IMG/VR virus record: IMGVR_UViG_3300013004_000026
Coordinates: 104,428 to 168,427 of that record
Length of the DNA stretch: 64,000 bases
Origin: a virus
Strand: one strand, 5' to 3'
Positions 2,544 to 14,754 of the stretch are shown here, piece after piece (position 1 is the stretch's first letter; every line of letters begins with the position of its first letter). The notes beneath the pieces were generated by a model. It ran no database searches. It saw nothing but the letters and a program-made list of their open reading frames with translations, and was not told the origin of the DNA. The translations under genes were made by a program, and so were the position numbers.

Positions 2544-2666
2544 ATGGTATTTTATTTGTTAGAATGCATGGTATTGATCATGTGGTATCTATTGTACTGC
2601 AAAACTAAACCTGAAATTAAAAAGCGCATGTATGATCCCTGGGGATTCTGGAAAGGATATAATTGA
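2544..2666 (+). CDS. 40-aa membrane peptide (not in the ORF track)
   Basis: GAGG upstream; MVFYLLECMVLIMWYLLYC...YDPWGFWKGYN; its stop overlaps the next ATG (TGATG). Confidence 0.5.
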   Translation: MVFYLLECMVLIMWYLLYCKTKPEIKKRMYDPWGFWKGYN

Positions 2667-3067
2667 TGGATGTTGTTGAATTAATTAACAAGTATGGATT
2701 TCCCATTGTCATGGCTGTGGGCATGGGTTACATTATCAAATATGTGTGGGAGTGGAGCACCAAAGAAGTCAAGCCAGTGATTTCTGAAGCAAACACAGTG
2801 CTCATAGCCTTGATTGATCGCATACGCATGTTGGACAATGATTTGATACGGTTGAATCAAAAAGTAAATACAGTACTGCATCTGCGAGGCAAGATGATTG
2901 AAAGCGATCGCGTGATGGAAACTGTAAAGGTCGAGCGCGAGGCAGCCAAACAGTTTGACCAAGCTGTGAGATTAGACGACGGAATTCACAGCAAACCCAA
3001 GAGTAAATCTAAAACAGAAACGTCTGACTCGTCAGATGATAAAGAAGCCAGAACAGGAAATCCTTGA
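2666..3067 (+). CDS. Small membrane protein, YvrJ/holin-like; paralog of 2102-2383
   Basis: GFPIVM motif plus TM helix; ALIDRIRMLDNDLIR aligns with ALDNRVKTMNHDVIR of the paralog. Confidence 0.65.
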   Translation: MDVVELINKYGFPIVMAVGMGYIIKYVWEWSTKEVKPVISEANTVLIALIDRIRMLDNDLIRLNQKVNTVLHLRGKMIESDRVMETVKVEREAAKQFDQAVRLDDGIHSKPKSKSKTETSDSSDDKEARTGNP

Positions 3068-3071
3068 TTGC

Positions 3072-3659
3072 ATGACAATCGTGTACATACACGGTGCATC
3101 TGCCACCAGTGAAAGTTTTACTCGCATACGAGAACATCTACCCAAAAGAGACCTGTGCATAGATTATCACAGCAGCGATGGGTTTGACACCAATCTCAAA
3201 AAAATGATTGAATTGTTGGACAATGTTGAAAAAGTGTTTTTTGTTGCCCACAGCTTGGGCGGCATCTATGCTATACATCTTGCAGATAAATTCCCCAACA
3301 AAGTTTTAGGCGCAGTTACTCTTAGCACACCCTACGGAGGCAGTAGAGAAGCAGACTATGCTAGATACTTTTTGCCTTTTTCACAGCTGATGCGTGACAT
3401 AGGAACTATGAGCCGTCCAATGAGTGTTGTAAAAGATCTACGATATCCCAAGAATAAGTGGACCAATGTGGTTACCACTCAAGGTGCAAGTCCTTGGATC
3501 AAACAAGACAATGACGGTGTTGTTACCATTGAAAGCATGCGAGCAGTTACCGACATGGAACTGATAGAAGTTCCTCTAAATCATTATGAAGTGGTGATCA
3601 GCGATAAAACTATAAACATTATCAAGGATCGCCTGGCAAGAACACCCTTAGGACCGTAA
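3072..3659 (+). CDS. Alpha/beta hydrolase (esterase/lipase-like)
   Basis: YIHG oxyanion motif, AHSLGG nucleophile elbow, TPYGGS, NDGVV, C-terminal His (LNHY). Confidence 0.85.
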   Translation: MTIVYIHGASATSESFTRIREHLPKRDLCIDYHSSDGFDTNLKKMIELLDNVEKVFFVAHSLGGIYAIHLADKFPNKVLGAVTLSTPYGGSREADYARYFLPFSQLMRDIGTMSRPMSVVKDLRYPKNKWTNVVTTQGASPWIKQDNDGVVTIESMRAVTDMELIEVPLNHYEVVISDKTINIIKDRLARTPLGP

Positions 3660-3728: not shown

Positions 3729-4508
3729 TTACTGTTCTAGCTCTTTCAATTCACTTATAAACTCTGCTTCTGGAATGCGTGTGCGAGTATTTTTACTGCC
3801 CAGCACCACCACAATTCTATCGCCCAAATCAGTGTCCATGAGCATGACAATGCATCCGCCACTGGTAGTTATCCAACCAGTCTTGCTTACTATCACTCGC
3901 TGAGTTCTACCAACCAAGGGATTGGTTTGAGGAAATAAAAAATACTTTTTCTTTAGTTTGATTTGTACTTTGGTCTTTTGACTGGCTTCAATCACTGCAC
4001 CATAAGTTCTGGCCGCACGAACAAGCATGACAAGTTCTCTAGCAGTACTGACATTTCTAGCATCTAGGCCTGTGGGCTCATATACCACACTGTTGACCAT
4101 GCCCAGTGTTTTCATCTTGATGTTCATTTCATCAACACAGGCTCTAAGCCCGCCGGGGTAGTGTTCGCACAAGGTCTGTGCAGCACGGTTGTCACTCTTG
4201 ACCATGGCCAGTTCAATCAAGGTGCGACGACTCAGAGTTTTTATCTTTCTGGGAATATGACTTTTAGGGGCTCGAGCCAGGGTAAGCTGTTCCTCCATGC
4301 TTTGACCTGCGTCTAACACAGTCATTACTGTGAGTAGTTTTGTGATACTGGCTATGCTGCGAACTTGATCCGTGTTATCGCTGCGGATTATGTTTCCTTG
4401 TGGATCTGACACAAGCCAGCTTTGTGCGGTAAGGTGTCCTTTTGCGACAGTTGACCCATGACCACAAATGGCGAAAAGTACCAATCCAATAATAATTTTA
4501 TTGAACAA
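3729..4508 (-). CDS. D-alanyl-D-alanine endopeptidase/carboxypeptidase (peptidase S11, PBP7-like)
   Basis: Signal peptide; SxxK (SITK), SDN and KTG motifs. Confidence 0.9.
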   Translation of the reverse strand: MFNKIIIGLVLFAICGHGSTVAKGHLTAQSWLVSDPQGNIIRSDNTDQVRSIASITKLLTVMTVLDAGQSMEEQLTLARAPKSHIPRKIKTLSRRTLIELAMVKSDNRAAQTLCEHYPGGLRACVDEMNIKMKTLGMVNSVVYEPTGLDARNVSTARELVMLVRAARTYGAVIEASQKTKVQIKLKKKYFLFPQTNPLVGRTQRVIVSKTGWITTSGGCIVMLMDTDLGDRIVVVLGSKNTRTRIPEAEFISELKELEQ

Positions 4509-4529
4509 TCAAAAATCCAATCCAAGTAA

Positions 4530-6593
4530 TTATTTAGAAGTGGCACGATATACGCCATCCCAATCCTTGGGCAGTTTGGCCCGTTTCATTTCTTCACAGC
4601 GCAGGATCCAAAGTTCATAGTAGTGATCCATTTGTCCGTCAAACTCGCCTGTGAGTTCTTGGCACAGTTTGATAGCTGCATCAAACTTTTGCTGTCTATA
4701 CAGCACAATCATTTCATCATGAGTTTCTTTGGCCATGATGTACTCGGGCATGCCACCTGCATTGGTAGTCAACGGAGTGTATATATTTAACCCAATTGCT
4801 TTGCCTTTCACCGCAATGCAATCTAGTTCCAGGCACAAGAAATCATCCTTGACCATTTGATAGGTGTCCGGGCCAATGATTATGAGCACCCCATAGCCTT
4901 TGGTTTGTCCTTCCAGTCGAGCAGCTACAGACACCGGATCGCCCAGCACATCGTATCCCATCTTACCTTCAGATCCAATATTGCCTACCAAGATCTTACC
5001 GGTGTTGACACCGGCGCCCATGCCCACTGGTGGTTTGCCGATGCTGGCCAGGTGGTTGTTAAACTGTTCTACCGCTTGGATCATTTCCATAGTAGTCTTG
5101 ACTGCACGATAGGCATGACGGTCGTCGTTAACTGGTGCACCGTGTATGTGCAAACTGGCGTCGCCGATGAACTTGATCAAACAGCCATCATTGGCAAACA
5201 CAGGTCGGCTGATCGCAGTCATGTATTCATTCATGATGGCAGTGAAGCCTTCGACATCTGCACCATACTTTTCTCCCAGTCCAGTAAAGTTGCGCATGTC
5301 TGTCATGATCACTGACAGCACTTTTTCTTCACCGCCCAACTTGATCAGCTCGGGATTCTTTTGCAGTCGTTCAACAATCACGGGACTCACATATGACCCA
5401 AATTGTTTCTTGATCTGTTGCTTCTGTAAGAACTCACTCACAAACTTAACGCCGTAAGTATGCAAAGCCACGAGCACAATACCAGCCGTGATTGCTGTCG
5501 CGTCTGCCAAGACGAGCCAGTTACTGAAAATATACTGAGTAACAGGAGCCACGGCAACGACCCCAAAAACAGTTGCACCCAAACCAACATAAGTCCACCT
5601 TGATAAAGAAATAATAATTAGTCCCAATAACAGCAATGTCAGAATCTCAGCGCCATCTGCATAGTCCGGACGCTGAATGGTAACATTGTTAAACATGGTT
5701 CCAATCACAGCAGCCTGCGCATCGTTGGGATACACCGCTCCTATGCTGGTGGGCACAGGATTTGAAATACCAGCTGCGGTAGGACCCACAAGGACTAGTG
5801 CGCCTTTAAGGTCTGCAGGCAGTTGTGTAATACTATAAGCGTGTGACTTTTGTGACCAGTCAATCCATATGCGACCAAGATTGTCCGTGGCAATTGGACC
5901 AAATTTGGGTATGCGCATTTTTTCAACGCCATACTCATTTAACTTTATTTGAAAGGTGGTGTCACCTGCTGCTACTCGCAACACTTCCATACCCAAACTT
6001 GGGTACAGAATGTCATTGACGCCAAATATCAAAGGCAGTCTTCGATTGACGCCATCTATTTCTGGCAGCGTGTGAGTACCACCTATGCCTGCCGCAGCAT
6101 TTTCTATAGCAGGAATGTTAGCAATAATACCTGGATAGTTTACAATGTTTTCGATCCACTCTGGCCCAAGCACTGCACTGCCAGGATTGCGAGGTTTGTT
6201 TTTTGTTTGATCACCTGGTACATTGGCAATGACCACAGGATATTTTTGCATTACCGCAGCTAGAGCAGCATCCCCGCCTAGCCTGTCTGTGTCCGGCATG
6301 AGCACATTCAGCACCACCAATCCTGCACCACGATTGTAAAGATCTTCTATCATGCGAGCATAGGTGTCTCGCTTGAATGGCCACTGTCCGTACTTGTCTA
6401 AAGCAGTTTCGTCAATGTTGGCCGTAACAATGTTGTTTTGTGTAGGAGCTTTGTCAGCTATTAGAGTATCAAAGTAGCGTAGTCTTATACTTTCTACAAA
6501 GACAGGATCAGCAATTCTTATACTTATAATAAGTGCCAATGTTAAAAGTGCGGTCCACGGATTTGACAGCACAGCTTTGATTTTGTTTTTCAT
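4530..6593 (-). CDS. CHASE2-domain class III adenylate/guanylate cyclase
   Basis: N-terminal TM helix, CHASE2 (YGQWPFKR, DGVNRRLPL), three TM helices, cyclase motifs TDMRNFT, KFIGDA, GVNTG and YDVLGD..AARLE. Confidence 0.92.
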   Translation of the reverse strand: MKNKIKAVLSNPWTALLTLALIISIRIADPVFVESIRLRYFDTLIADKAPTQNNIVTANIDETALDKYGQWPFKRDTYARMIEDLYNRGAGLVVLNVLMPDTDRLGGDAALAAVMQKYPVVIANVPGDQTKNKPRNPGSAVLGPEWIENIVNYPGIIANIPAIENAAAGIGGTHTLPEIDGVNRRLPLIFGVNDILYPSLGMEVLRVAAGDTTFQIKLNEYGVEKMRIPKFGPIATDNLGRIWIDWSQKSHAYSITQLPADLKGALVLVGPTAAGISNPVPTSIGAVYPNDAQAAVIGTMFNNVTIQRPDYADGAEILTLLLLGLIIISLSRWTYVGLGATVFGVVAVAPVTQYIFSNWLVLADATAITAGIVLVALHTYGVKFVSEFLQKQQIKKQFGSYVSPVIVERLQKNPELIKLGGEEKVLSVIMTDMRNFTGLGEKYGADVEGFTAIMNEYMTAISRPVFANDGCLIKFIGDASLHIHGAPVNDDRHAYRAVKTTMEMIQAVEQFNNHLASIGKPPVGMGAGVNTGKILVGNIGSEGKMGYDVLGDPVSVAARLEGQTKGYGVLIIIGPDTYQMVKDDFLCLELDCIAVKGKAIGLNIYTPLTTNAGGMPEYIMAKETHDEMIVLYRQQKFDAAIKLCQELTGEFDGQMDHYYELWILRCEEMKRAKLPKDWDGVYRATSK

Positions 6594-6646
6594 TTAATTA
6601 TTTAAGGTTCTAGGTATTTGCCTATGGACCAGCATTGTATTTACAA

Positions 6647-6949
6647 TTACACAGATTCACCTAGTAACAAAGTAGAACCATCACCAACACCCACAATGCA
6701 AGCAATGCCTTCTGTGTTCATTTGCAGCATGGTCCAGGTGCCCAGTTTTTCATTTACAAACAAAGTATACCTGGTGTGGTCCACTGGATTTTTAGCTGAC
6801 CAAATTGGTTTTTCGTTATAGTTAGACAAGGAAAAAAGCAAACTTTCAATGCTGTCGCACAGTACCGGTTTACGAGCTTCAAATGGTTGGGCATTGACAT
6901 TGGATAGTATTGACGCAAATGCTACGCATGACATAATTAATTTTTTCAT
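6647..6949 (-). CDS. Small secreted hypothetical protein (two Cys in the mature part)
   Basis: GGAGG RBS; signal peptide MKKLIMSCVAFASILSNVNA. Confidence 0.7.
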   Translation of the reverse strand: MKKLIMSCVAFASILSNVNAQPFEARKPVLCDSIESLLFSLSNYNEKPIWSAKNPVDHTRYTLFVNEKLGTWTMLQMNTEGIACIVGVGDGSTLLLGESV

Positions 6950-6978
6950 TTGTTGCCTCCGGTGGTGCAATATTTATG

Positions 6979-7003
6979 TAAAAAAGCCCTCCGAAGAGGG
7001 CTT
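6979..7003 (-). terminator. Rho-independent terminator
   Basis: AAGCCCTC-TTCG-GAGGGCTT hairpin followed by a U-tract on the - strand. Confidence 0.8.
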
Positions 7004-7030
7004 GAAACACAGCACTTGAGTATAGTTGTT

Positions 7031-9382
7031 TTAGTTAAATACCCATCTGATGCTTGCCTGTGCTGTGGAGTGTGACACACCATTTTGATACTGCTGTCCC
7101 ACAGTAATACCTCCCACAATGTTTTGTCTTGGAGCAAAGTTGATTCCTGCTCTAACAGTGCTTAGGCTAGTATCTGTGTGACTGGCTTCTAGCATGAAAT
7201 TCACAGCGTCTTTGATCACAGTGTCATAGCGCAAGCCCAGTTCACTCACTGTGCGAGTACGATTAACACTGTCATATGACATGGCTGTGATAGCATCACC
7301 AGACTCTATCAGTGCATTGCGCTTGTTCTGTTCCACACGAATACCACCAAACGGCCTAAAGCCGCGCCAGTCTGGCGTATACAATCTGTTGCTGATCCAA
7401 GCATCTGCACCTGTGGTTTTACCAGAGTTTGAATAACCTAGGTCTGGCAACAGATGATAGTTGGTAAAACTGTTCTGAGCATAACCTACATCAGTTTTGA
7501 ACAACCAATTGTTATGGTTGTACAGGCTGTAGATACCCACATGGTCTTTGGTAAGTGATCCACCTGCATCTTGCCCTGACAGTGTGCCGCGCACATGATT
7601 GTATTGTAGACCCACTACCCAGTTGCCCTTGATCTGTTTTTCGTGCCCAACACCAAGGCGACGGTTGGTTAACGAGTAGGTGTCGTTGGTGTTGGTTGTG
7701 CCACCTTCTGTAACTAGATACCACCAGCCTTTTTCCTGACTACCAGCATTACGAGTTCTGCTGGTCAATCCTTCACCATTGCTGGTATGACGACTTAACA
7801 CATCGCTGTCCAAGTTCATGTTCATACGATTGTTAGCTGCCTCCAACTGACTGTATTGATCAATTCTAGTGTAATAGTTTTGATTGCTTGAAGTTGTTAC
7901 AACTTCGTTGGTAGTAGTTACATTGGTTGTGACATCGTTACGCACAGTCACAGTTGTCACTGGAGTTCCGTCGGCGGTAGTAGTAGTACCATCACTCCAG
8001 GTTGTTACTGTTCTAGGAGTGGTAACTGTGGTCACTGTTACAGGTGTTGTTTGAGTTGTAGTAGTGGTCACAGGTGTTGTGCTTACCACTGTGGTTGTAC
8101 GCACCACTGCCAACTGTTTGTTATCAGCTGTGGCGTCACCGCGGTTATTGGCATGAGTAACTACCTCTACAGTGTTGCCACGCACAATAGTAGCACTTGT
8201 TACTGTGGTGCCTGGGGTTTCTGTTGTCACAACCTGCGAAGTACCAGGTGCGGTGCTGACCACAGTGGGGGTAGTATTCAAGCTAGATGTCGCTCCGGAT
8301 GTGCCAGGATTGGCCACTGTACCATCGCCTGTGTCTGTGCTGGTTGTTGTGCTGGCGCTGTTGTAGTAATAGCTGACTTCAGATACTTGCACACTGTTAC
8401 AATTTTCAGTTCCCAACCAACCACCACCGTAGGCCGCCATACAGTTTGTCATGTTAGGATATAAATCCAGAGCCTTGGTGCTGTCAAAGGTGATAAAGTA
8501 ATACACATACGCATTGGTATTGGTAAAAGTGATATCGCTAGATGCAGTGAAGCGACTGTCACTGAGAGTTATGGCTTGATTGTCAACAATAGTAGTCCAA
8601 GTCTTGCCATCATTGGAGCCAAACAAACTGAATTTGCTAGGATCTCTTGGAGCATAGTCGTTGGCAGTGGTTATAGTTAACTTTTCCAGCACACGACCTT
8701 GATCCAGCTTGATTGTAAAACCAGCACTGGCACGATCAAAGTTCAGGTATTTTGTGCCTGAGTTGCCATCAATCACATTGGTAGCACCTTCTCCCGACGG
8801 ACTGTTATTGCTAGTTGGAGTCACTTGTACCACATTAGCACTGGTAATTGCTGTGTATGTTGGCGTGGTGCTGCCGCTACCGGCTGTTTGCCCTGCTGCC
8901 AATGGGGTGGTGCTGGCCCAGGTGTAACTGCTTATATCACCGGCACTAACACTGGTGTCCATATTGGTAAAACTGGCACTGGCACCGTAATTGTAGCCCT
9001 CTGCTGTGGAAATTACATTTCCAAGCCATCCACTACCAAGATAAAAGATAGCTCCACTTCCCAGTGCTGTTATCTGTCCTGTAGAGTGGATTATTCTATT
9101 CAGTGTGTTGTCACTGTTGTACAATCCCATACCATGAGTGCCATCACCATTGTCAATGAATTTGAAATATTGACCAGCGGTGGCTGTGACAGTTTGGAAA
9201 TTGGAATCATACGGTGCAATAAAATTTGAAGCGTTTAAGGTAGTTCCGCTCCAGTTGTATTGCACATCAAAGATTTGATTAATACTAAACGCACCATCTG
9301 TTACTGCGGCATTGGTGTTTGAAACCATGCCCATGGCCAAGGCCATAGCGGCCACGAAGGCCATTACTTTTTTTATTATCAT
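7031..9382 (-). CDS. Autotransporter-like outer-membrane protein: F5/8 type C (discoidin) domain, Thr-rich stalk, C-terminal beta-barrel
   Basis: Signal peptide; GEGATNVIDGNSGTKYL..RDPSKFSLFGSNDGKTW discoidin motif; T/V-rich linker; amphipathic beta strands ending IRWVFN. Confidence 0.75.
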   Translation of the reverse strand: MIIKKVMAFVAAMALAMGMVSNTNAAVTDGAFSINQIFDVQYNWSGTTLNASNFIAPYDSNFQTVTATAGQYFKFIDNGDGTHGMGLYNSDNTLNRIIHSTGQITALGSGAIFYLGSGWLGNVISTAEGYNYGASASFTNMDTSVSAGDISSYTWASTTPLAAGQTAGSGSTTPTYTAITSANVVQVTPTSNNSPSGEGATNVIDGNSGTKYLNFDRASAGFTIKLDQGRVLEKLTITTANDYAPRDPSKFSLFGSNDGKTWTTIVDNQAITLSDSRFTASSDITFTNTNAYVYYFITFDSTKALDLYPNMTNCMAAYGGGWLGTENCNSVQVSEVSYYYNSASTTTSTDTGDGTVANPGTSGATSSLNTTPTVVSTAPGTSQVVTTETPGTTVTSATIVRGNTVEVVTHANNRGDATADNKQLAVVRTTTVVSTTPVTTTTTQTTPVTVTTVTTPRTVTTWSDGTTTTADGTPVTTVTVRNDVTTNVTTTNEVVTTSSNQNYYTRIDQYSQLEAANNRMNMNLDSDVLSRHTSNGEGLTSRTRNAGSQEKGWWYLVTEGGTTNTNDTYSLTNRRLGVGHEKQIKGNWVVGLQYNHVRGTLSGQDAGGSLTKDHVGIYSLYNHNNWLFKTDVGYAQNSFTNYHLLPDLGYSNSGKTTGADAWISNRLYTPDWRGFRPFGGIRVEQNKRNALIESGDAITAMSYDSVNRTRTVSELGLRYDTVIKDAVNFMLEASHTDTSLSTVRAGINFAPRQNIVGGITVGQQYQNGVSHSTAQASIRWVFN

Positions 9383-9461
9383 TTTTTTCTCCAACTTTAT
9401 TATTGTTATTGGTGTTGGTGCTAGTATTTAGGCCAAAATGGACAAACCAAAAAATACTGAG

Positions 9462-10565
9462 TTATTGCTGTGTTATAGTGAGTGAGCTGGTACTGCCTTT
9501 GTTGACATTTTGTATAATGGTCTGACCGTCTTGGTTCAAAGTAAATGTAGCATTTTTATTGGTATCAAAAGTAGCAGTGGCCGTGTGTACACCTGCTTTG
9601 TACAGTGTGACCTTGCTGGAATCTTCATTGAAATAATACAACAGTCCCAGTGACTTGTTGGCGGCATAGCCAGGCAACACTGGTATATCTAGTTCGTTGC
9701 TCAACAACGAAGCATTTTGTCTGTCTAGTTCATTCAATTCATTGTAGGCCAATAAATCTGCGTCTAAGTCATTTCTATCCAAGGCTGTTTTTTCATCTAG
9801 CGCATTGACATCTAATTTTGAAAATTTCAGTAGGTCAATATCTAATTCATTGAAATCCAACAGTCCTTTTTCTTTTCTGGCTATGCCTGCTTGCTCTGCG
9901 TCTGTTATTTCTTTTGGCTTGCTGATGATCAACATGTTGCTGATATTGGCTTGATCCAATCTTACCACCGTGGGCTCGGTAGGCGGTTGATAGGCACTGT
10001 TGACCATGGTGGCCTGATAAGGAACATCCAATAACACAACTCCTGCTAGATTTCTGACTTCTATCACACCTGTAACACAACCGCCTTTGGGATCACAACT
10101 GGGCAGCAGCATCACAAGGCTGCGCCCTAGTTCATCCACTGTCATGGAAAAATCAGTACCTCGTACGGCAATGGTAGCAGTGGGTGTTTTGATAGCTACC
10201 TGCTGGGGATTGTTTTTGGCTATCTGTCCCGAGGCATATCGTGCCGTACCCAAGGCCATGTTGATGGCCAACTTGCCTGATCCTTTCTTTGGATCATATA
10301 CAAAATCATCTATGATCATTTTTGAATGTTCAGTGAGCTTGACTGTGGTTTTGTCTTCAAAGGTAAGTTCGGCCCGAGACTTGGCTGTGGAAATGGCGTC
10401 GTTCATTTCAACACCAGTATTCACAGCCGAGGGAATACTTTTCTTGTTCCTCAGAATCTCTGTAGGACCAGTTTGTTCTGTTACTTTGCCAACTGCGGCA
10501 GCAGCTTCAATCGGACTGAGTAACAGTAACGTTGTTATTAGAACCGTTGCTGGTAATAACTGCAT
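9462..10565 (-). CDS. FecR-domain periplasmic protein
   Basis: Signal peptide; LTFEDKTTVKLTEHSKM, GTARYASG and IKTPTATIAVRGTDF FecR motifs; Leu/Asp-rich linker. Confidence 0.85.
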   Translation of the reverse strand: MQLLPATVLITTLLLLSPIEAAAAVGKVTEQTGPTEILRNKKSIPSAVNTGVEMNDAISTAKSRAELTFEDKTTVKLTEHSKMIIDDFVYDPKKGSGKLAINMALGTARYASGQIAKNNPQQVAIKTPTATIAVRGTDFSMTVDELGRSLVMLLPSCDPKGGCVTGVIEVRNLAGVVLLDVPYQATMVNSAYQPPTEPTVVRLDQANISNMLIISKPKEITDAEQAGIARKEKGLLDFNELDIDLLKFSKLDVNALDEKTALDRNDLDADLLAYNELNELDRQNASLLSNELDIPVLPGYAANKSLGLLYYFNEDSSKVTLYKAGVHTATATFDTNKNATFTLNQDGQTIIQNVNKGSTSSLTITQQ

Positions 10566-11178
10566 TTTTATTTGACACTCCACTCTGTACCAGTGTAACC
10601 GCATTTGGTGCACCGTTTGCTCCACTGCCCGATACCGTAATTTCTCCTGAATGCAACCCCACACCAGATGCAGTGTGTGTTACATTGTTGTAGTTGCCGG
10701 TTATGGCTATGGTGCTTCTTGTTGTTCCTCCGCTGAGTGTTTGTACAGTGTTGTTATTATTACCAACTATTTCAGATCTAATGGTGTTTGCATTGCAGTT
10801 GGAAGCCAATGCTGTACCGCAGCCTACAGTTTGATTATTGCCACTACCATCAGCAGATATAACCACAGTGGCTCCAGTGCCATTGGTTTCATTGTTTACC
10901 ACTACAGAAACAGTGTTACTGGCGCCTATTTGCGTGATAGTCACGCTGTTAAGATCGCCTTTGATCAGTGCAGGATCATCTGTGTTGCCTGATCCGTCAA
11001 CATTTCCATTCACAAGATTACCAGCTCCTGTTTGCGTGATTGATACTGTGGAATTATCTCCTATTTGCTCAATGTAGACATCATTGGCCCAACTGTTGGA
11101 TAGCATCAGCCCTGACGCTGATAGCATGACCAACAAACTTTTCCACAATCTACTTTTATTTTTTATTTTAGTTTTCAT
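10507..11178 (-). CDS. Curlin-repeat (CsgA/CsgB-like) secreted protein
   Basis: GGAG RBS; signal peptide; repeated N-x-V-x-I-x-Q-x-G-x-x-N units (NDVYIEQIGDN, NSVTITQIGASN, NNVTVTQ). Confidence 0.75.
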   Translation of the reverse strand: MKTKIKNKSRLWKSLLVMLSASGLMLSNSWANDVYIEQIGDNSTVSITQTGAGNLVNGNVDGSGNTDDPALIKGDLNSVTITQIGASNTVSVVVNNETNGTGATVVISADGSGNNQTVGCGTALASNCNANTIRSEIVGNNNNTVQTLSGGTTRSTIAITGNYNNVTHTASGVGLHSGEITVSGSGANGAPNAVTLVQSGVSNKNAVITSNGSNNNVTVTQSD

Positions 11179-11208
11179 TTTAGCTCCAGATGCTTGTGCA
11201 TCCATGTG

Positions 11209-11361
11209 TTACTTTCCCTTACTGCTCTGCTCCTTTGAAGGCGGTGCTCTCATCATTTTTGCTTCTTGCATGACTTTATCTCTCGCTGGGCTGCTCCGTT
11301 GCGGGGGCTGCGCTGGCATCTGACTGGGATGGCGCGACGGTTTGTGATTGAACCAACTCAT
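11209..11361 (-). CDS. 50-aa basic/Pro-rich peptide overlapping the csgG 3' end
   Basis: Strong AAGGAG RBS before ATG 11361 (MSWFNHKPSRH...). Confidence 0.5.
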   Translation of the reverse strand: MSWFNHKPSRHPSQMPAQPPQRSSPARDKVMQEAKMMRAPPSKEQSSKGK

Positions 11362-12175
11362 CTTTGTTCTCCTTAATTTGCGTTGTGCCACTGGCTGCAA
11401 GTTTTTTATATCTCCACAAGCCTTTCTTTTCGCCTGCTATGACCATGTCATGTACTGCTTGTTCTATGGCAACTCGCACAGCATAGGTAGTCGGTTCATT
11501 AAGAGCAGATCCATTTTCAAGCTCAAGGGCCTTGGTACCTGCGTCTACAAAACGCAACACACCCACATTGTGCTGAGTGCTATAGATAGTTTTGCTAACA
11601 GCATTGCTTATTAGAACTTCACCACTGTTAACACTGATCAATCTGAGACTGATAACGATTTCATCCACACGGTATTGTTGGCTTCCACCAATGCCTAAAA
11701 ATCTAGCACCGTTGCCGCCACTTCTTATGTTGCTGTCATACCCTATAATGCCACCTTCAATCAGCACTCCTGCCACAGTCATTGGTTTCAATGGCCTAGC
11801 ATCTTTTCCTTCATATACTTCTCGTTGATTGCGTATCAGCTGGCGCTCTTTGATCAGATTATCAAGCCCCACACGCTCTACCACTTTGAACCAGTTGTTG
11901 GCGTCTTGCAGTGATTTTATTAAAAACACTTCTGCGCCCTGAGTGACTGCTTTTGAAAACACAGCCAATCTGTCATTGGGTTTCATCTGCCCTGTTTTGT
12001 CCGCAAATCCATACACAGCTATGGTTATAGGTGGCCCATCCAAGTCAGGTAATTTTGTTACTAGATTTTCTTTTGGCAGTAGTGCAACAGGCTCTTCTTT
12101 GTTCAGGTCCATGTTTACATGAGCACATCCCGAGAGAGCTGTCGCAAGGATTGTGTATAGCAAGATGTGTTTCAT
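11276..12175 (-). CDS. csgG: Curli secretion channel lipoprotein CsgG
   Basis: Lipobox LSGC; IAVYGFADKTGQ, AVTQGA, WFKVVERVGLDNLIKERQLIR, GARFLGIG, NEP motifs. Confidence 0.93.
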   Translation of the reverse strand: MKHILLYTILATALSGCAHVNMDLNKEEPVALLPKENLVTKLPDLDGPPITIAVYGFADKTGQMKPNDRLAVFSKAVTQGAEVFLIKSLQDANNWFKVVERVGLDNLIKERQLIRNQREVYEGKDARPLKPMTVAGVLIEGGIIGYDSNIRSGGNGARFLGIGGSQQYRVDEIVISLRLISVNSGEVLISNAVSKTIYSTQHNVGVLRFVDAGTKALELENGSALNEPTTYAVRVAIEQAVHDMVIAGEKKGLWRYKKLAASGTTQIKENKDELVQSQTVAPSQSDASAAPATEQPSER

Positions 12176-12621
12176 TAAAATGCAAAGCTCGCTATTGGGA
12201 CAATTATTTCTGTTCTGCCACCTGTAGCTTCAATTATGGTCAAAGTTACATCGGTGCCAGTTTTAACCCAACTGATATTTGTACCTTGAAAGTCCATGCT
12301 ACCGCTGTTGCCGCCACCTTCAGCAAACATTTGATCAGCCAGCTGTTTGGATAATTGGGCGTAGATACGGGCTTCTACATTTACAAGAAATTTTGCAAGA
12401 TTTGTTTGTTTTGCGGCTGCTTCTGCTTTGGCCAATGCTGCGGCTGCTTCTGCTTTGATTTCTTTGGCTTTGTTTTCTTCCATCTGGAAGATGGAAAGTA
12501 CATGTTGGCTGTAGCCGTTGCCCGGTATAAACGCAGGGCTTTGAAATTGATGCACCAGCTCGGTTGGACGAGCAACCGCTGATACAGTGACTAGCGCCAC
12601 CACCAGCAGTAACCTTTTCAT
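12175..12621 (-). CDS. csgF: Curli assembly protein CsgF
   Basis: Signal peptide followed by ELVHQFQSPAFIPGNG; coupled to csgG; AAAGGAG RBS. Confidence 0.85.
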   Translation of the reverse strand: MKRLLLVVALVTVSAVARPTELVHQFQSPAFIPGNGYSQHVLSIFQMEENKAKEIKAEAAAALAKAEAAAKQTNLAKFLVNVEARIYAQLSKQLADQMFAEGGGNSGSMDFQGTNISWVKTGTDVTLTIIEATGGRTEIIVPIASFAF

Positions 12622-12730
12622 CTTCCCAGCTCCTTTTGATAATTCCGCAGGGCTTGTTGATGATTTTAATTGATAGAAACGCCCTTGTTATGTAAGTATT
12701 TACAACATCAAGAGCATCAATTCACTGGTG

Positions 12731-13073: not shown

Positions 13074-13313
13074 TTACCACCGTTGACTTTGTTCTCTAAA
13101 CGCTTCTAGTCTAGCTGCTTTATTACTTTCTGTTGCGGAACTCTGATTGCCGGTGTTTGCTAGCATGGCTGTTTGTACCACAGTTTGTTCAATGCTGTGT
13201 ACTGTGTTCTTTAGTTCTTCTACATCGTCAAGTATAAACTTGATTCTGGTATCCATGGCTTTGACAATACTAATCAGTTCGTCAACTTTGCTATCAGTTT
13301 CTTTTTCGTACAT
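13074..13313 (-). CDS. Hypothetical coiled-coil protein
   Basis: 79-aa ORF with TAATG coupling. Confidence 0.6.
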   Translation of the reverse strand: MYEKETDSKVDELISIVKAMDTRIKFILDDVEELKNTVHSIEQTVVQTAMLANTGNQSSATESNKAARLEAFREQSQRW

Positions 13314-13864
13314 TAGGCATGGGCCCTTTCTTTAGGGTTAACAACTTTTGCTTTTTTATATATTTCTTGAACACCAATAGCTTGATAATAACAATCCATA
13401 AGAGCATTGTGTGCTGCTCTGCGCGATTTATCTCTTGGGTCGCCGTGTACACCAAACAATGTACGACTGTCACGAATTTGCCAGAATTGCCATGGTGTGG
13501 GCTTGCCCAGCTGGCGATACAAGTTTTCTAAAATAACAATATCAAACGCAGGCCCTTGACACCAAATACTGTCAACTCCTACTAGAAATCTGTTCAGACT
13601 GGAGGACAATGTTTCTAGACTCACTCTGTTTGATTCGCCCATGGCTTCTTCAAAAACTTCAGATTCTTGTTTTCCCCACCAGTCAACAGTTTCTTGTTGT
13701 ACATGACGGCCCAGGCTCAGTTGTTCGTCGACATCAATGCGCAGATATAAACCTGCTTCTGCATCAACATCCTCCTCCCAGGGATTGAATTTCACAGCGC
13801 CAATGGTTAAGATCACGCTTTCTGGGCGTGTGCTCAGAGTTTCTAAATCAAGCATCACATCCAT
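13313..13864 (-). CDS. DEDDh 3'-5' exonuclease (Rv2179c/DUF5051-like)
   Basis: MLDLETL, FD, RDSRT and HNALMD motifs. Confidence 0.85.
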   Translation of the reverse strand: MDVMLDLETLSTRPESVILTIGAVKFNPWEEDVDAEAGLYLRIDVDEQLSLGRHVQQETVDWWGKQESEVFEEAMGESNRVSLETLSSSLNRFLVGVDSIWCQGPAFDIVILENLYRQLGKPTPWQFWQIRDSRTLFGVHGDPRDKSRRAAHNALMDCYYQAIGVQEIYKKAKVVNPKERAHA

Positions 13865-14193
13865 TAGCCGTCTACCTCAAGTTTGATTTGCAAGGGAAAT
13901 CCGTTGTTTCTTGCCAGCAGTGTGGTTTCTATACCTTTTTGCTCGGCCAATTCAAAAGGATACACTGCTACAACACCACTGCCTTCTTCATGGATTTGAA
14001 CAGTTTTGGCTTCGGCAGCTTCGGGTCCGTATTTGAATATATTTTTCAAGCATTCAACAATAAATTCCATGGTAGTAATTTCATCATTGACAAAAATTAC
14101 TTTGAATAGTTTTGGCTCTTGAACATTCAACTTTGGATCATGTTTCAAAGCATTTTCTTGTCTGGGCTTGATAGCAGTGTCGGTTGGCATCAT
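13864..14193 (-). CDS. clpS: Clp protease adaptor ClpS
   Basis: FKVIFVNDEITTMEFIV, IHEEGSGVV, AEQK, GFPL motifs. Confidence 0.92.
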   Translation of the reverse strand: MMPTDTAIKPRQENALKHDPKLNVQEPKLFKVIFVNDEITTMEFIVECLKNIFKYGPEAAEAKTVQIHEEGSGVVAVYPFELAEQKGIETTLLARNNGFPLQIKLEVDG

Positions 14194-14207
14194 TTTCTTT
14201 CCAAAAG

Positions 14208-14235
14208 TAAAAGGCTACGAGTTGCCTCGTAGCCT
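14208..14235 (-). terminator. Rho-independent terminator after the Hsp20 gene
   Basis: AGGCTACGAG-GCAA-CTCGTAGCCT hairpin plus T-rich tail. Confidence 0.7.
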
Positions 14236-14243
14236 ACATTATA

Positions 14244-14696
14244 TTACTTAGAGAAAGTAATTGCAACCTTCTTGGGTTTTTGTGTTTCCGGAACTTTGTG
14301 TTCCAGAGTCACAGTGAGAATGCCATTGGCCACACCAGCACCTATCACTTCCACACTTTCATTTAGTGGAAACACTCGTTCAAAGTTACGAGTGGCCAGG
14401 CCGCGATGTAGATATTGCCAGGTTTCTTCACTGTCGCGCTTGCGTTCACCCCGAATGGTCAGCACACTCTGTCCATAAGTATTTGTCACAGTTTCAATGT
14501 CTAATTCATTTTCCAAAAAGCCAGCCACTGCCATTTCGATAATGTATCTATTATCACCTGTGCGAATGATATTGTGCGGTGGGTAGTTTTCTTGTTTGCT
14601 CACTTGGAAAGAGCGTTGAATCTCTTCAAACAGTTGGTCAAAACCAACAAAACTGCGATGTAGGGTGGGTAGATCTAGAGTTACATAAGTGGTCAT
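14244..14696 (-). CDS. Small heat shock protein (Hsp20/IbpA family)
   Basis: VGFDQLF, YPPHNI, EMAVAGF, YLHRGLATRNFER, NGIL motifs; AAGGAG RBS. Confidence 0.93.
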   Translation of the reverse strand: MTTYVTLDLPTLHRSFVGFDQLFEEIQRSFQVSKQENYPPHNIIRTGDNRYIIEMAVAGFLENELDIETVTNTYGQSVLTIRGERKRDSEETWQYLHRGLATRNFERVFPLNESVEVIGAGVANGILTVTLEHKVPETQKPKKVAITFSK

Positions 14697-14754
14697 TTTA
14701 TTTTCTCCTTTAAGCAAAATATGACTTGTAAGACCCCGTAGGCATCTTACATTT

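Follow-up and report, generated by a model that had tools for sequence, protein, structure and literature searches.

A candidate envelope module of CsgF, CsgG, curlin-repeat, FecR-domain and CHASE2 cyclase genes in a freshwater jumbo phage

Introduction

The gene set CsgF-CsgG-curlin-FecR-(second curlin)-adenylate cyclase has been published for marine pelagiphages (PMC9599517) and is also annotated in the phages Melnitz and HTVC008M. The first-pass annotation of the locus described here had assumed that phages were known to carry csgF and csgG alone; a 2022 paper had already described the whole set with FecR and the cyclase (PMC9599517). Its other precedent, the NsrA-CyaK pair, is real (PMC7529298, PMC13001267): in Sinorhizobium meliloti, signaling by the CHASE2 cyclase CyaK needs the outer-membrane protein NsrA (PMC7529298), and the FecR-domain protein SMc02177 is dispensable for signal perception (PMC5498481).

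The core gene set, published for marine SAR11 pelagiphages, is thus not new. New here are its presence in another phage group, the freshwater jumbo phages; a type Va autotransporter with an F5/8C lectin domain in place of the second curlin; a DD-endopeptidase as an optional add-on and a bacterial counterpart in one Henriciella MAG; a small membrane protein (2663-3067) as the constant companion of the module; the placement of FecR beside a CHASE2 cyclase as a recurrent alphaproteobacterial pairing; and a conserved TAAATA element at the head of the csgF operon.

Results

Carrier phage and gene content

The analyzed stretch of 64,000 nucleotides (the window) covers positions 104,428 to 168,427 of the 168 kb IMG/VR virus record IMGVR_UViG_3300013004_000026, whose phage RNR, helicase and tail genes bear out the phage origin of the module. 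The source, from lake water, belongs with the freshwater jumbo phages of PA5oct/Atu_ph07/XacN1 type; a T4-like Kyanoviridae identity was rejected.

Eight co-oriented minus-strand ORFs occupy positions 3729-12621 (Table 1). The domains named for them from the letters alone (CsgF, CsgG, curlin, FecR, lectin, CHASE2 cyclase and PBP7-like peptidase) are all matched in Pfam, every score exceeding the curated cut-off. N-terminal signal peptides can be read directly from the translations of CsgF, the curlin, the FecR-domain protein, the 787-aa and 107-aa proteins and the peptidase. Relatives were found on at least 450 IMG/VR contigs.

Table 1. Features of the module, listed from the head of the csgF unit downward
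Feature	Position	Strand	Span in ORF list	Properties
TAAATA(C) promoter-like element	12697..12702	-		head of the csgF-csgG-curlin-fecR unit
CsgF	12175..12621	-	12175-12621	148 aa; signal peptide; PF10614, 60.5 bits; phrog_35372
CsgG	11276..12175	-	11276-12175	PF03783, 182.5 bits; lipobox LSGC
Curlin-repeat protein	10507..11205	-	10507-11205	PF07012 (Curlin_rpt), 34.4 bits; signal peptide
Periplasmic FecR-domain protein	9462..10565	-	9462-10664	367 aa; PF04773, 45.3 bits
TAAATAC element	9424..9430	-		ahead of the autotransporter gene
Type Va autotransporter (lectin-bearing outer-membrane protein)	7031..9394	-	7031-9394	787 aa; PF00754 (F5/8 type C), 34.6 bits
Intrinsic terminator	6984..7003	-		directly 3' of the autotransporter gene; 8-bp stem with 5 GC pairs, then a T run
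Small secreted protein	6647..6949	-	6647-6970	100 aa; signal peptide; two invariant Cys; TAAATA ahead at 6971-6976
TAAATAC element	6637-6643			ahead of the cyclase gene
CHASE2 sensor and class III adenylate cyclase	4530..6593	-	4530-6593	687 aa; PF05226, 128.8 bits; PF00211 (Guanylate_cyc), 62.4 bits
PBP7/PbpG-like DD-endopeptidase	3729..4508	-	3729-4508	259 aa; signal peptide; PF00768 (Peptidase_S11), 129.4 bits
Small single-pass membrane protein	2663..3067	+		134 aa; phrog_18771; outside the eight-ORF block

Export apparatus and the variable slot

CsgF is 40-41% identical to Melnitz gp99 and HTVC008M gp014. CsgG matches the E. coli CsgG structures (E 2e-46), scores 172 bits against NF011731, which is under the equivalog cut-off, and retains only the Phe (Phe56) of the E. 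coli constriction Tyr-Asn-Phe. The curlin-repeat protein, with a probable start at ATG 11181, has about seven imperfect Q-x-G-x-x-N units, and the Q/G/N columns are invariant in its alignment (A7). CsgE, CsgC/H and CsgD were looked for alongside the phage csg genes and none was found, in agreement with the absence of csgE and csgD claimed earlier. The first part of the module is a curli-type type VIII secretion apparatus, in which the CsgG lipoprotein channel with CsgF may export the curlin-repeat subunit onto the cell surface.

The slot between fecR and the cyclase gene is variable and is filled here by an autotransporter, which is composed of a signal peptide, a passenger with an F5/8 type C (discoidin) lectin-like domain, a Thr-rich linker and a C-terminal beta-barrel; homologous barrels lie in the same slot of six other loci. 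The label "lectin beta-barrel" given earlier is right, because an autotransporter beta-domain (PF03797, E 6e-14) covers the C-terminal 269 of the 787 residues. Slot proteins carry Curlin_rpt (12), PA14 (4), F5/8C (3) and Autotransporter (2) Pfam domains; in the relatives, curlin repeats are joined to a PA14 or F5/8C domain, for example in HTVC008M gp018 (PA14 and curlin repeats). The slot would provide a surface-displayed lectin-like head, here an F5/8C domain on its own autotransporter barrel. The small secreted protein, which most likely starts at 6949 (107 aa in the ORF list), had no match in Pfam, PHROG or NCBIfam and belongs to a 13-member family (A6); a fold search with its model (pLDDT 82) gave no informative match.

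These genes could also form an adhesion device, with infected cells building curli-like fibers and lectin adhesins that clump or coat cells for "sibling capture", particle attachment or the exclusion of competing phages, while FecR and the cyclase merely tune expression or act independently on host metabolism. This is the hypothesis of the published work (PMC7029224, PMC9599517), and it agrees with the complete export set (CsgG and CsgF plus a curlin subunit that bears a signal peptide), with the lectin-like domains on curlin repeats or autotransporter barrels, and with the kinship of CsgG and HfaB, an anchor protein of the holdfast (NF037935, E 8e-11). However, Melnitz cultures showed no clumping (PMC9004378), no cAMP-reading transcription factor is encoded near the module, and adhesion leaves unexplained why FecR and a monophyletic CHASE2 cyclase stay with csg across three phage lineages. 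We consider it possible but rather doubtful.

FecR-domain protein, cyclase and their conservation

The FecR-domain protein most likely starts at 10565, and the resulting 367-aa version is identical to a database protein. It consists of a signal peptide, a FecR/PupR-like domain with two invariant Cys (alignment A3), an acidic Leu/Asp-rich linker and a small C-terminal beta domain; its predicted model (pLDDT 60) was matched by Foldseek to the PupR cell-surface-signaling domain 6OVK (E 1e-3). The cyclase is an inner-membrane protein with transmembrane segments flanking CHASE2 on either side, and it matches phrog_35576 (E 2e-191). Its catalytic residues D432, K474, D478, D548 and R559 are kept; among them are both metal Asp, the Arg and the Lys/Asp pair for ATP. 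In the subtype of this window the transition-state Asn is replaced by Ser, so the enzyme may not be fully active. In a quick tree, the CsgFG-linked cyclases of jumbo phages, T4-like phages and Henriciella all group together, to the exclusion of the other bacterial CHASE2 cyclases (SH-aLRT 100).

The expected co-conservation of the genes is found: of the 53 related viral loci whose sequence extends 8 kb or more upstream of the cyclase gene, 44 encode CsgF, CsgG and FecR beside it. Two contigs apparently lacking these three genes do carry CsgG, 12-16 kb off. The order of the core genes is preserved in jumbo and T4-like phages, in the podoviruses that PMC9599517 describes, and in one bacterium. 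Between fecR and the cyclase gene there is often a hypervariable island with unrelated cargo, the distance varying from 60 bp to about 20 kb, and the two genes are mutually inverted in four loci, so they are not one obligate operon. Co-location without joint function, as unrelated cargo of a hypervariable island in large aquatic phages, would agree with the content of this interval (glycosyltransferases, a nuclease, RimK and a porin) and with an autotransporter gene that has its own promoter-like motif and terminator, but the ordered co-conservation of the core and the monophyly of the csg-linked cyclases argue against it. We regard this explanation as highly improbable; synteny brings it close to refuted.

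The sole chromosomal bacterial counterpart is a Henriciella MAG, in which CsgF, CsgG, a curlin-like protein, FecR and a CHASE2 cyclase are encoded amid housekeeping genes. CsgG-cyclase adjacency was found neither in 33 other CsgG-bearing genomes of the Henriciella order nor at the five closest full-length bacterial cyclase homologs. This counterpart is a single case and may itself be phage-derived.

At bacterial loci of related CHASE2 cyclases, fecR lies within 2 kb of the cyclase gene in 17 of 53 cases, and the neighbors encode a secretin, TPR proteins, an OEP protein, a BBP2 barrel, a cAMP phosphodiesterase-GAF-HD protein and a cNMP-binding EAL protein. Many Alphaproteobacteria keep the FecR-CHASE2 cyclase pair beside outer-membrane proteins and cAMP effectors.

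Peptidase and small membrane protein

The peptidase has the SxxK, SxN and KTG motifs, matches the murein DD-endopeptidase 6MUQ (E 5e-33) and scores 157 bits against NF008668 (cut-off 294). It lies directly downstream of the cyclase gene in 22 of 80 loci and is an accessory, optional gene, a helper that may loosen peptidoglycan for the envelope-spanning parts.

The 134-aa membrane protein has a 75-aa core with conservation of up to 97%. Of 50,697 phage records searched, only Melnitz and HTVC008M have it, and in all 45 IMG/VR loci with 8 kb of flank on both sides of its gene the cyclase or CsgG is encoded within 10 kb. This protein would be an obligatory member of the module.

A lysis-timing role, also raised in the first-pass annotation, is speculation, the sole hint being the weak holin-like signal of the 134-aa protein (phrog_4898, E 1e-4 over 22 residues; Holin_BhlA, 0.82 in Atlas). 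As put forward for Melnitz (PMC9004378), CsgG/CsgF would be a gated outer-membrane pore (pinholin- or secretin-like) that, with the help of the 134-aa protein and the peptidase, times envelope failure. The holin-like architecture of the former and the adjacency of the latter fit this proposal; yet the holin signals are under any reliable threshold, most loci have no peptidase, the block shows no endolysin or spanin, and the curlin subunit, FecR, the lectin proteins and the cyclase get no role. We consider such a pore unlikely.

Promoter-like motifs

The TAAATA motifs previously marked at 12697, 9425, 6971 and 6599 are all present on the minus strand. In the window the hexamer is not enriched (37 versus 31 expected), and there is a single copy of the T4 late octamer TATAAATA (1.7 expected), whereas TAAATAC is enriched (15 versus 7.0 expected; none of 100 shuffles reaches 15). 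In 38 of 51 related loci TAAATA falls no more than 150 nt ahead of csgF (background 7.9%), which makes it a probable promoter element, tentatively of the late type as labeled earlier. It is not conserved ahead of the internal genes csgG, curlin and fecR (3/54, 4/53 and 5/57, respectively).

Discussion

We read the block as a freshwater jumbo-phage copy of a mobile envelope module with two co-inherited parts, in which FecR relays the outer-membrane state to the CHASE2 cyclase, and hold this reading with even confidence. Beside the export apparatus, the second part consists of the periplasmic FecR-domain protein and the inner-membrane class III cyclase with ATP-type specificity residues. The FecR-like protein may inform CHASE2 about the condition of the outer-membrane apparatus, which could be its assembly, its load or the binding of a ligand, and this signal would set cAMP synthesis in the infected cell. 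Judged from the sequences, a surface-sensing circuit is plausible; to call it complete, as was done initially, is an overstatement, since the 168 kb record, about 47% complete, yielded no output protein that binds cNMP. The FecR-sensor reading is also weighed down by the S. meliloti data, as SMc02177 is not needed there for perception (PMC5498481).

The closest known system is the pelagiphage T8SS/curli region (PMC9599517, PMC7029224, PMC9004378; Melnitz gp98-104, HTVC008M gp012-019), which has the same genes in the same order: CsgF, CsgG, a curlin-repeat protein, FecR, a variable second gene and the CHASE2 cyclase, as well as the small gene, which is upstream in pelagiphages and on the opposite strand beyond the cyclase here. 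The module proteins are 29-49% identical to those of Melnitz and HTVC008M, and csgE and csgD are absent from both modules. The pelagiphage carriers are marine T4-like phages or podoviruses, whereas the carrier here is a freshwater PA5oct/Atu_ph07/XacN1-type jumbo phage; the second curlin is replaced by the F5/8C autotransporter, the 100-aa secreted protein and the S11 DD-endopeptidase are extra, and no kinase domain was detected in the gene at the position of the "histidine kinase" of PMC9599517.

With bacterial curli (E. coli CsgBAC/CsgDEFG and alphaproteobacterial csg operons) the phage set shares CsgG and CsgF homologs and a secreted Q/N/G-repeat subunit, but it is without CsgE, CsgC/H and CsgD and has only Phe56 of the CsgG constriction; phage csg genes are linked to FecR and the cyclase, a link found among bacteria in the one Henriciella MAG only. 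The S. meliloti NsrA-CyaK/CyaD system likewise combines an outer-membrane beta-barrel protein with an inner-membrane CHASE2 class III cyclase making cAMP (PMC7529298, PMC13001267). The outer-membrane partner is NsrA there and CsgG/F with the autotransporter in the phage. The phage module carries FecR; in the rhizobial pathway a FecR-domain protein has no established role (PMC5498481). FecR/PupR regulators share the periplasmic FecR-domain fold (the 6OVK match), but in the phage protein the signal peptide is cleavable and the cytoplasmic anti-sigma part is missing. In the Burkholderia FecR-CHASE2 histidine-kinase operon (PMC5192318), a FecR-domain gene adjoins a CHASE2 sensor gene, as in the phage; the output is a cyclase in the phage and a kinase or sigma factor in the Burkholderia and FecR/PupR systems.

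Gene content of the block and the phage that carries it

The 168 kb IMG/VR record, whose final 64 kb make up the window, is approximately 47% complete according to CheckV. ORF calling placed eight co-oriented ORFs, all on the minus strand, in the curli block (see the table). The domain names given to them in the first-pass annotation agree with Pfam, every match scoring above the curated cut-off, and the identities of these parts are established; the 107-aa ORF of the block had no Pfam match. Reading the translations directly, we found signal peptides in six products of the block, a lipobox in CsgG and membrane segments flanking CHASE2.

The genes near the block include those for a ribonucleotide reductase, a DnaB-like helicase, a second helicase and a tail-spike-like protein. 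The window helicase is 50-55% identical to its counterparts in Pseudomonas phage PA5oct, Agrobacterium phage Atu_ph07 and Xanthomonas jumbo phages, and another gene of the record also indicates the XacN1/SCTP-2/RsoM2USA group. As both genes point to relatives of the PA5oct/Atu_ph07/XacN1 type, the carrier is a jumbo phage and not a T4-like member of Kyanoviridae. Lake-water metagenomes of 17 studies contain DNA nearly identical to the window stretch; none of the sequencing runs listed for it was an RNA dataset. The comparison of the block with cultured phages by megablast gave no match, and the tRNA gene search of the window found none.

Upstream of the module lie three consecutive genes encoding an Rv2179c-like 3'-5' exoribonuclease, a ClpS adaptor and an Hsp20 small heat-shock protein; this trio is kept in many related loci.

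Coordinates of the features discussed, as positions in the window
Feature	Position	Strand	Remark
Small membrane protein gene	2663-3067	+	134 aa
Alpha/beta hydrolase gene	3036-3659	+	between the small membrane gene and the peptidase gene
Curli block	3729-12621	-	eight ORFs
Slot gene (autotransporter)	7031-9394	-	787 aa, between fecR and the cyclase gene
End of csgF and start of csgG	12175	-	
Exoribonuclease, ClpS and Hsp20 genes	13313-14717	-	consecutive
TAAATAC motifs ahead of minus-strand genes	20157, 20841, 32877, 35237, 36364		examples

Conservation of the module in phages

A cyclase scan of IMG/VR identified at least 450 contigs, the best 80 of 450 were retrieved, and their neighbourhoods were judged by TBLASTN with phage queries and by simple ORF calling. 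Among the 53 loci whose sequence extends 8 kb or more upstream of the cyclase, 44 have CsgF, CsgG and FecR together, which confirms the co-conservation of these genes and demonstrates joint inheritance. The curlin gene was also found by TBLASTN in 41 of these 44 loci; in 40 loci the genes are co-oriented upstream of the cyclase, and in four they are inverted. Two contigs seemingly devoid of the genes have CsgG 12-16 kb upstream on the same contig, and a third has it 21 kb from the small membrane gene.

Besides minor partial matches, the only cultured phages matched by the CsgG and by the cyclase queries were Melnitz (on OM43) and HTVC008M (on SAR11). In both, the annotation runs from CsgF through CsgG, a curlin-repeat protein, a FecR-domain protein and a second protein to the cyclase; the existence of these two cultured carriers makes the module testable.

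A further gene, located on the plus strand outside the block, encodes a small single-pass membrane protein, in which an N-terminal transmembrane helix leads into a long helix; the 75-residue core of this protein is up to 97% identical between loci. The gene accompanies the cyclase in 66 of the 80 loci, and its counterparts in the cultured phages, Melnitz gp98 and HTVC008M gp012, are situated right upstream of csgF. Among 50,697 phage records, the protein was found in Melnitz and HTVC008M only, and in all 45 loci with 8 kb on each side of the small membrane gene either the cyclase or CsgG lies within 10 kb. The small membrane protein is thus an overlooked constant member of the module, seen only with the csg/FecR/cyclase genes. 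As a query it matched 592 IMG/VR contigs; with at least 450 contigs carrying the cyclase and approximately 590 carrying this protein, the module is common.

Neither Pfam nor NCBIfam detected a kinase domain in the window protein, Melnitz gp98 or HTVC008M gp012. Holin signals were weak: phrog_4898 matched with E 1e-4 over 22 residues, Pfam YvrJ had E 0.63, and the Atlas scores for Holin_BhlA (0.82) and YvrJ (0.84) were both below the 0.9 guide value. The alpha/beta hydrolase gene next to the small membrane gene was considered as well; it was seen in just two related loci and is probably not a module member.

Curli apparatus

CsgG scored 182.5 bits against PF03783 (cut-off 20.8); its residues 9-259 align with 3X2R/6L7A (E 2e-46), so that the phage protein matches E. 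coli CsgG along its whole length. Its N-terminus closes with LSGC, read directly as a lipoprotein signal with the lipobox Cys. In the alignment of the constriction (KPNDRLAVFS versus KPYP-ASNFS), Phe alone of the E. coli motif is retained; this motif, Tyr51-Asn55-Phe56 in E. coli numbering, is a feature of the E. coli protein and not of the whole family. CsgF has a signal peptide and scored 60.5 bits against PF10614 (cut-off 25.8); csgF ends where csgG starts. The curlin protein, also with a signal peptide, matched PF07012 in two stretches (34.4 bits, cut-off 20.7), and its Q/G/N columns are invariant across an alignment of 14 curlin homologues (A7). The curlin subunit would be exported through CsgG/F.

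FecR-domain protein and CHASE2 cyclase

In the FecR protein (PF04773, 45.3 bits), the signal peptide precedes a conserved FecR domain, two cysteines of which are invariant; an acidic linker then leads to a small beta domain at the C-terminus. The FecR domain comes straight after the signal peptide, with neither a cytoplasmic anti-sigma domain nor a membrane anchor, and the product is therefore referred to as a FecR-domain protein and not as a FecR regulator. Its model (mean pLDDT 60) was matched by Foldseek to the C-terminal domain of PupR (6OVK, E 1e-3, probability 1.0), the matched part being the periplasmic cell-surface-signalling domain of an anti-sigma regulator. Domains of the PupR type bind outer-membrane proteins in Fec-like systems. 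The FecR-like protein may connect the outer-membrane apparatus with CHASE2.

The last 70 aa of the model, a small beta domain in a low-confidence model, resemble the "cell surface anchoring domain" 5IX9 (TM 0.79), which we regard only as a lead. The conserved terminal pattern N-x-T-x-T-x-x-Q-x-G ... N-x-G-G ... I-x-I-x-Q of the FecR proteins had raised the idea of a C-terminal curlin repeat. It was rejected: Pfam Curlin_rpt gave no match on ten C-termini, and hhalign of the C-terminal alignment (A8) against the curlin-repeat alignment (A7) yielded a probability of 6.6% over 12 columns.

The cyclase scored 128.8 bits against PF05226, with CHASE2 lying between transmembrane segments, and 62.4 bits against PF00211. 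Aligned with the guanylate cyclase Cya2 (2W01), where Glu and Gly occupy the specificity positions, it retains both metal-binding Asp residues, the Lys/Asp pair specifying ATP and the transition-state Arg (D432, D478, K474, D548 and R559 in alignment A1). The transition-state Asn is replaced by Ser (VSVAARLE in the window versus VNLTYRIE in Cya2), and for that reason the cyclase activity is predicted only. Residues ~400-600 of the same alignment fall into two catalytic-domain subtypes among otherwise close relatives, one with Asp at the specificity position and Ser at the Asn position (the window, Melnitz), and the other with Thr at the Asp position and Asn (HTVC008M and others); this pattern suggests recombination inside the cyclase gene. 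The output of the module would be cAMP; the 168 kb record, which represents about half of the genome, yielded no cNMP_binding domain.

Variable members of the module

The last 269 aa of the 787-aa slot protein matched PF03797 (52.8 bits versus a cut-off of 26, E 6e-14), a match missed when the whole Thr-rich protein was scanned, and its passenger matched PF00754 (F5/8 type C). The signal peptide, the PF00754 passenger and the C-terminal PF03797 domain together identify it as a type Va autotransporter whose passenger is lectin-like. A TAAATAC motif of its own and a strong terminator accompany this gene, as expected of an inserted cassette.

The gap between fecR and the cyclase gene is a hypervariable island ranging from 60 bp to ~20 kb. 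According to Pfam, the slot occupants in 62 representatives are most often curlin-repeat proteins (12), followed by proteins with PA14 (four) or F5/8C (three) and autotransporters (two); HTVC008M gp018 combines PA14 with curlin repeats. One relative has the F5/8C domain in common with the window slot protein and lacks the common barrel, and six others have the barrel in common. The island also holds genes of glycosyltransferases, a non-specific endonuclease, RimK-like ATP-grasp enzymes, a phosphate porin and a giant RCC1-repeat protein (loci L004-L083). The recurring theme of the slot is a lectin-like head, putatively displayed at the surface and anchored via curlin repeats or an autotransporter barrel.

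For the 100-aa secreted protein, Foldseek gave no match at E 1e-3 or better, the best VIA-align hits were propeller blades (Z 6.6), and Atlas placed it with virus-only clusters (0.88). No CsgC/E/H-like match was among those listed, which leaves room for such a relation.

The peptidase (PF00768, 129.4 bits) has SITK, SDN and KTG in its translation, corresponding to SxxK, SxN and KTG. The solved structures nearest to it are PBP7/PbpG-type murein DD-endopeptidases (6MUQ, E 5e-33); its NF008668 score of 157.5 bits is below the NCBIfam equivalog cut-off of 294, so it is PBP7-like and not an equivalog. An S11 peptidase gene follows the cyclase gene in 22 of the 80 loci and is therefore accessory. 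The constant members are the small membrane protein, CsgF, CsgG, curlin, FecR and the cyclase, and the variable ones are the lectin-bearing slot protein and the DD-endopeptidase.

Transcription signals

The TAAATA motifs of the block had been read as late-type signals. A T4-type late promoter is not supported, as the T4 late octamer TATAAATA occurs once in 64 kb versus 1.7 copies expected and is not enriched; the TAAATA(C) core itself is conserved. TAAATAC is enriched in the window (15 copies versus seven expected), 11 copies being on the coding strand and mostly right before genes, and it is likely a promoter core of this phage. In the relatives, TAAATA occurs in the 150 nt preceding csgF in 38 of 51 cases and in those preceding the cyclase gene in 23 of 80, but only at the background level before csgG, curlin and fecR, making csgF-csgG-curlin-fecR one predicted transcription unit; the slot and cyclase genes have predicted promoters of their own. 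A scan for sigma-70 promoters was at the chance level (18 versus 19.3 expected), and Melnitz gp33, a late-transcription coactivator, had no match in the 168 kb record, which is uninformative.

Bacterial counterparts and the cyclase tree

Scanning 185,579 species genomes with the cyclase profile, we found two kinds of loci. The first are short contigs in MAGs of unrelated taxa (Chitinophagaceae, Legionellales, Pirellulales, Rhodobacteraceae and Bacteroidetes; L084-L088, L112) bearing the complete module as well as the small membrane gene; they are probably phage DNA binned into bacterial MAGs. The second are genuine alphaproteobacterial loci with ~28-36% identity. Among them, a Henriciella MAG carries, on a contig of 397 kb, consecutive genes of CsgF, CsgG, a 504-aa curlin-like repeat protein, FecR and the cyclase amid housekeeping genes (L089, 6020-12043). 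This operon is the sole bacterial counterpart found: the cyclase is absent from the vicinity of CsgG in 33 other CsgG-bearing genomes of the same order, and CsgG is absent beside the five closest full-length cyclase homologs from 401 sampled alphaproteobacterial genomes.

A quick maximum-likelihood tree unites all csg-linked cyclases in a single clade (support 100), apart from other bacterial CHASE2 cyclases, showing that the linkage of csg genes with the cyclase arose once. The Henriciella cyclase branches inside the phage clade as a sister to the jumbo-phage group (support 84). The module has moved among at least three phage lineages and one bacterium.

Related cyclases are present in 93 of the 401 sampled alphaproteobacterial genomes, and the FecR-CHASE2 pairing is recurrent in bacteria, with a FecR match within 2 kb of the CHASE2 cyclase in 17 of 53 bacterial loci. 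The neighbours of such pairs include a secretin, TPR proteins, a TolC-like OEP protein and a beta-barrel porin, as well as the cAMP-related class II phosphodiesterase-GAF-HD protein and cNMP-binding EAL protein. In four loci (L126, L130, L153, L157) the pair adjoins a GspD-type secretin, a cAMP phosphodiesterase-GAF-HD protein or a cNMP-binding EAL protein; these loci look like small cAMP signalling islands, of which no description was found in the literature examined. These results single out FecR-CHASE2 as an under-studied alphaproteobacterial signalling pair.

Possible role and comparison with known systems

Coupled secretion and signalling is the best single account of the module and the one we favour. 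The main rival is adhesion, the published explanation, which is compatible with it. We know of no characterised bacterial curli system that couples the secretion/amyloid apparatus to second-messenger synthesis. A further explanation, which we consider rather unlikely, is that the module is a portable trans-envelope sensor. Here, the FecR-like protein gating the CHASE2 cyclase would read a curli-type pore and fibre whose lectin heads (PA14 or F5/8C) are exchangeable and sit on curlin repeats or an autotransporter, surface contact or glycan binding would lead to cAMP in an infected cell, and the small membrane protein would provide a link to envelope failure or lysis timing. If true, jumbo, T4-like and podovirus aquatic phages would have in common a phage-encoded means of sensing their surroundings.

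The "curli operon" was treated without FecR or the cyclase in PMC7029224 and PMC9004378, and our literature search on curli and jumbo phages yielded nothing relevant. The earlier supposition that csgF and csgG alone are known in phages does not hold: according to PMC9599517, pelagiphage podoviruses and myoviruses carry HK, CsgF, CsgG, CsgA/B, FecR, a second CsgA/B and an adenylate cyclase, with a proposed alphaproteobacterial origin and transfer between virus families. Since that paper already contains the full set, the core observation is a rediscovery. The window agrees with its definition of the module, having CsgF, CsgG, a curlin repeat, FecR and an adenylate cyclase clustered in a phage genome. 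The gene preceding csgF is a "histidine kinase" in PMC9599517; its presumed counterpart in the window, equated by position only, is the small membrane protein, in which no kinase domain was detected. What is new here is the jumbo-phage carrier lineage and several components, extending the known range of the module from marine pelagiphages to freshwater jumbo phages.
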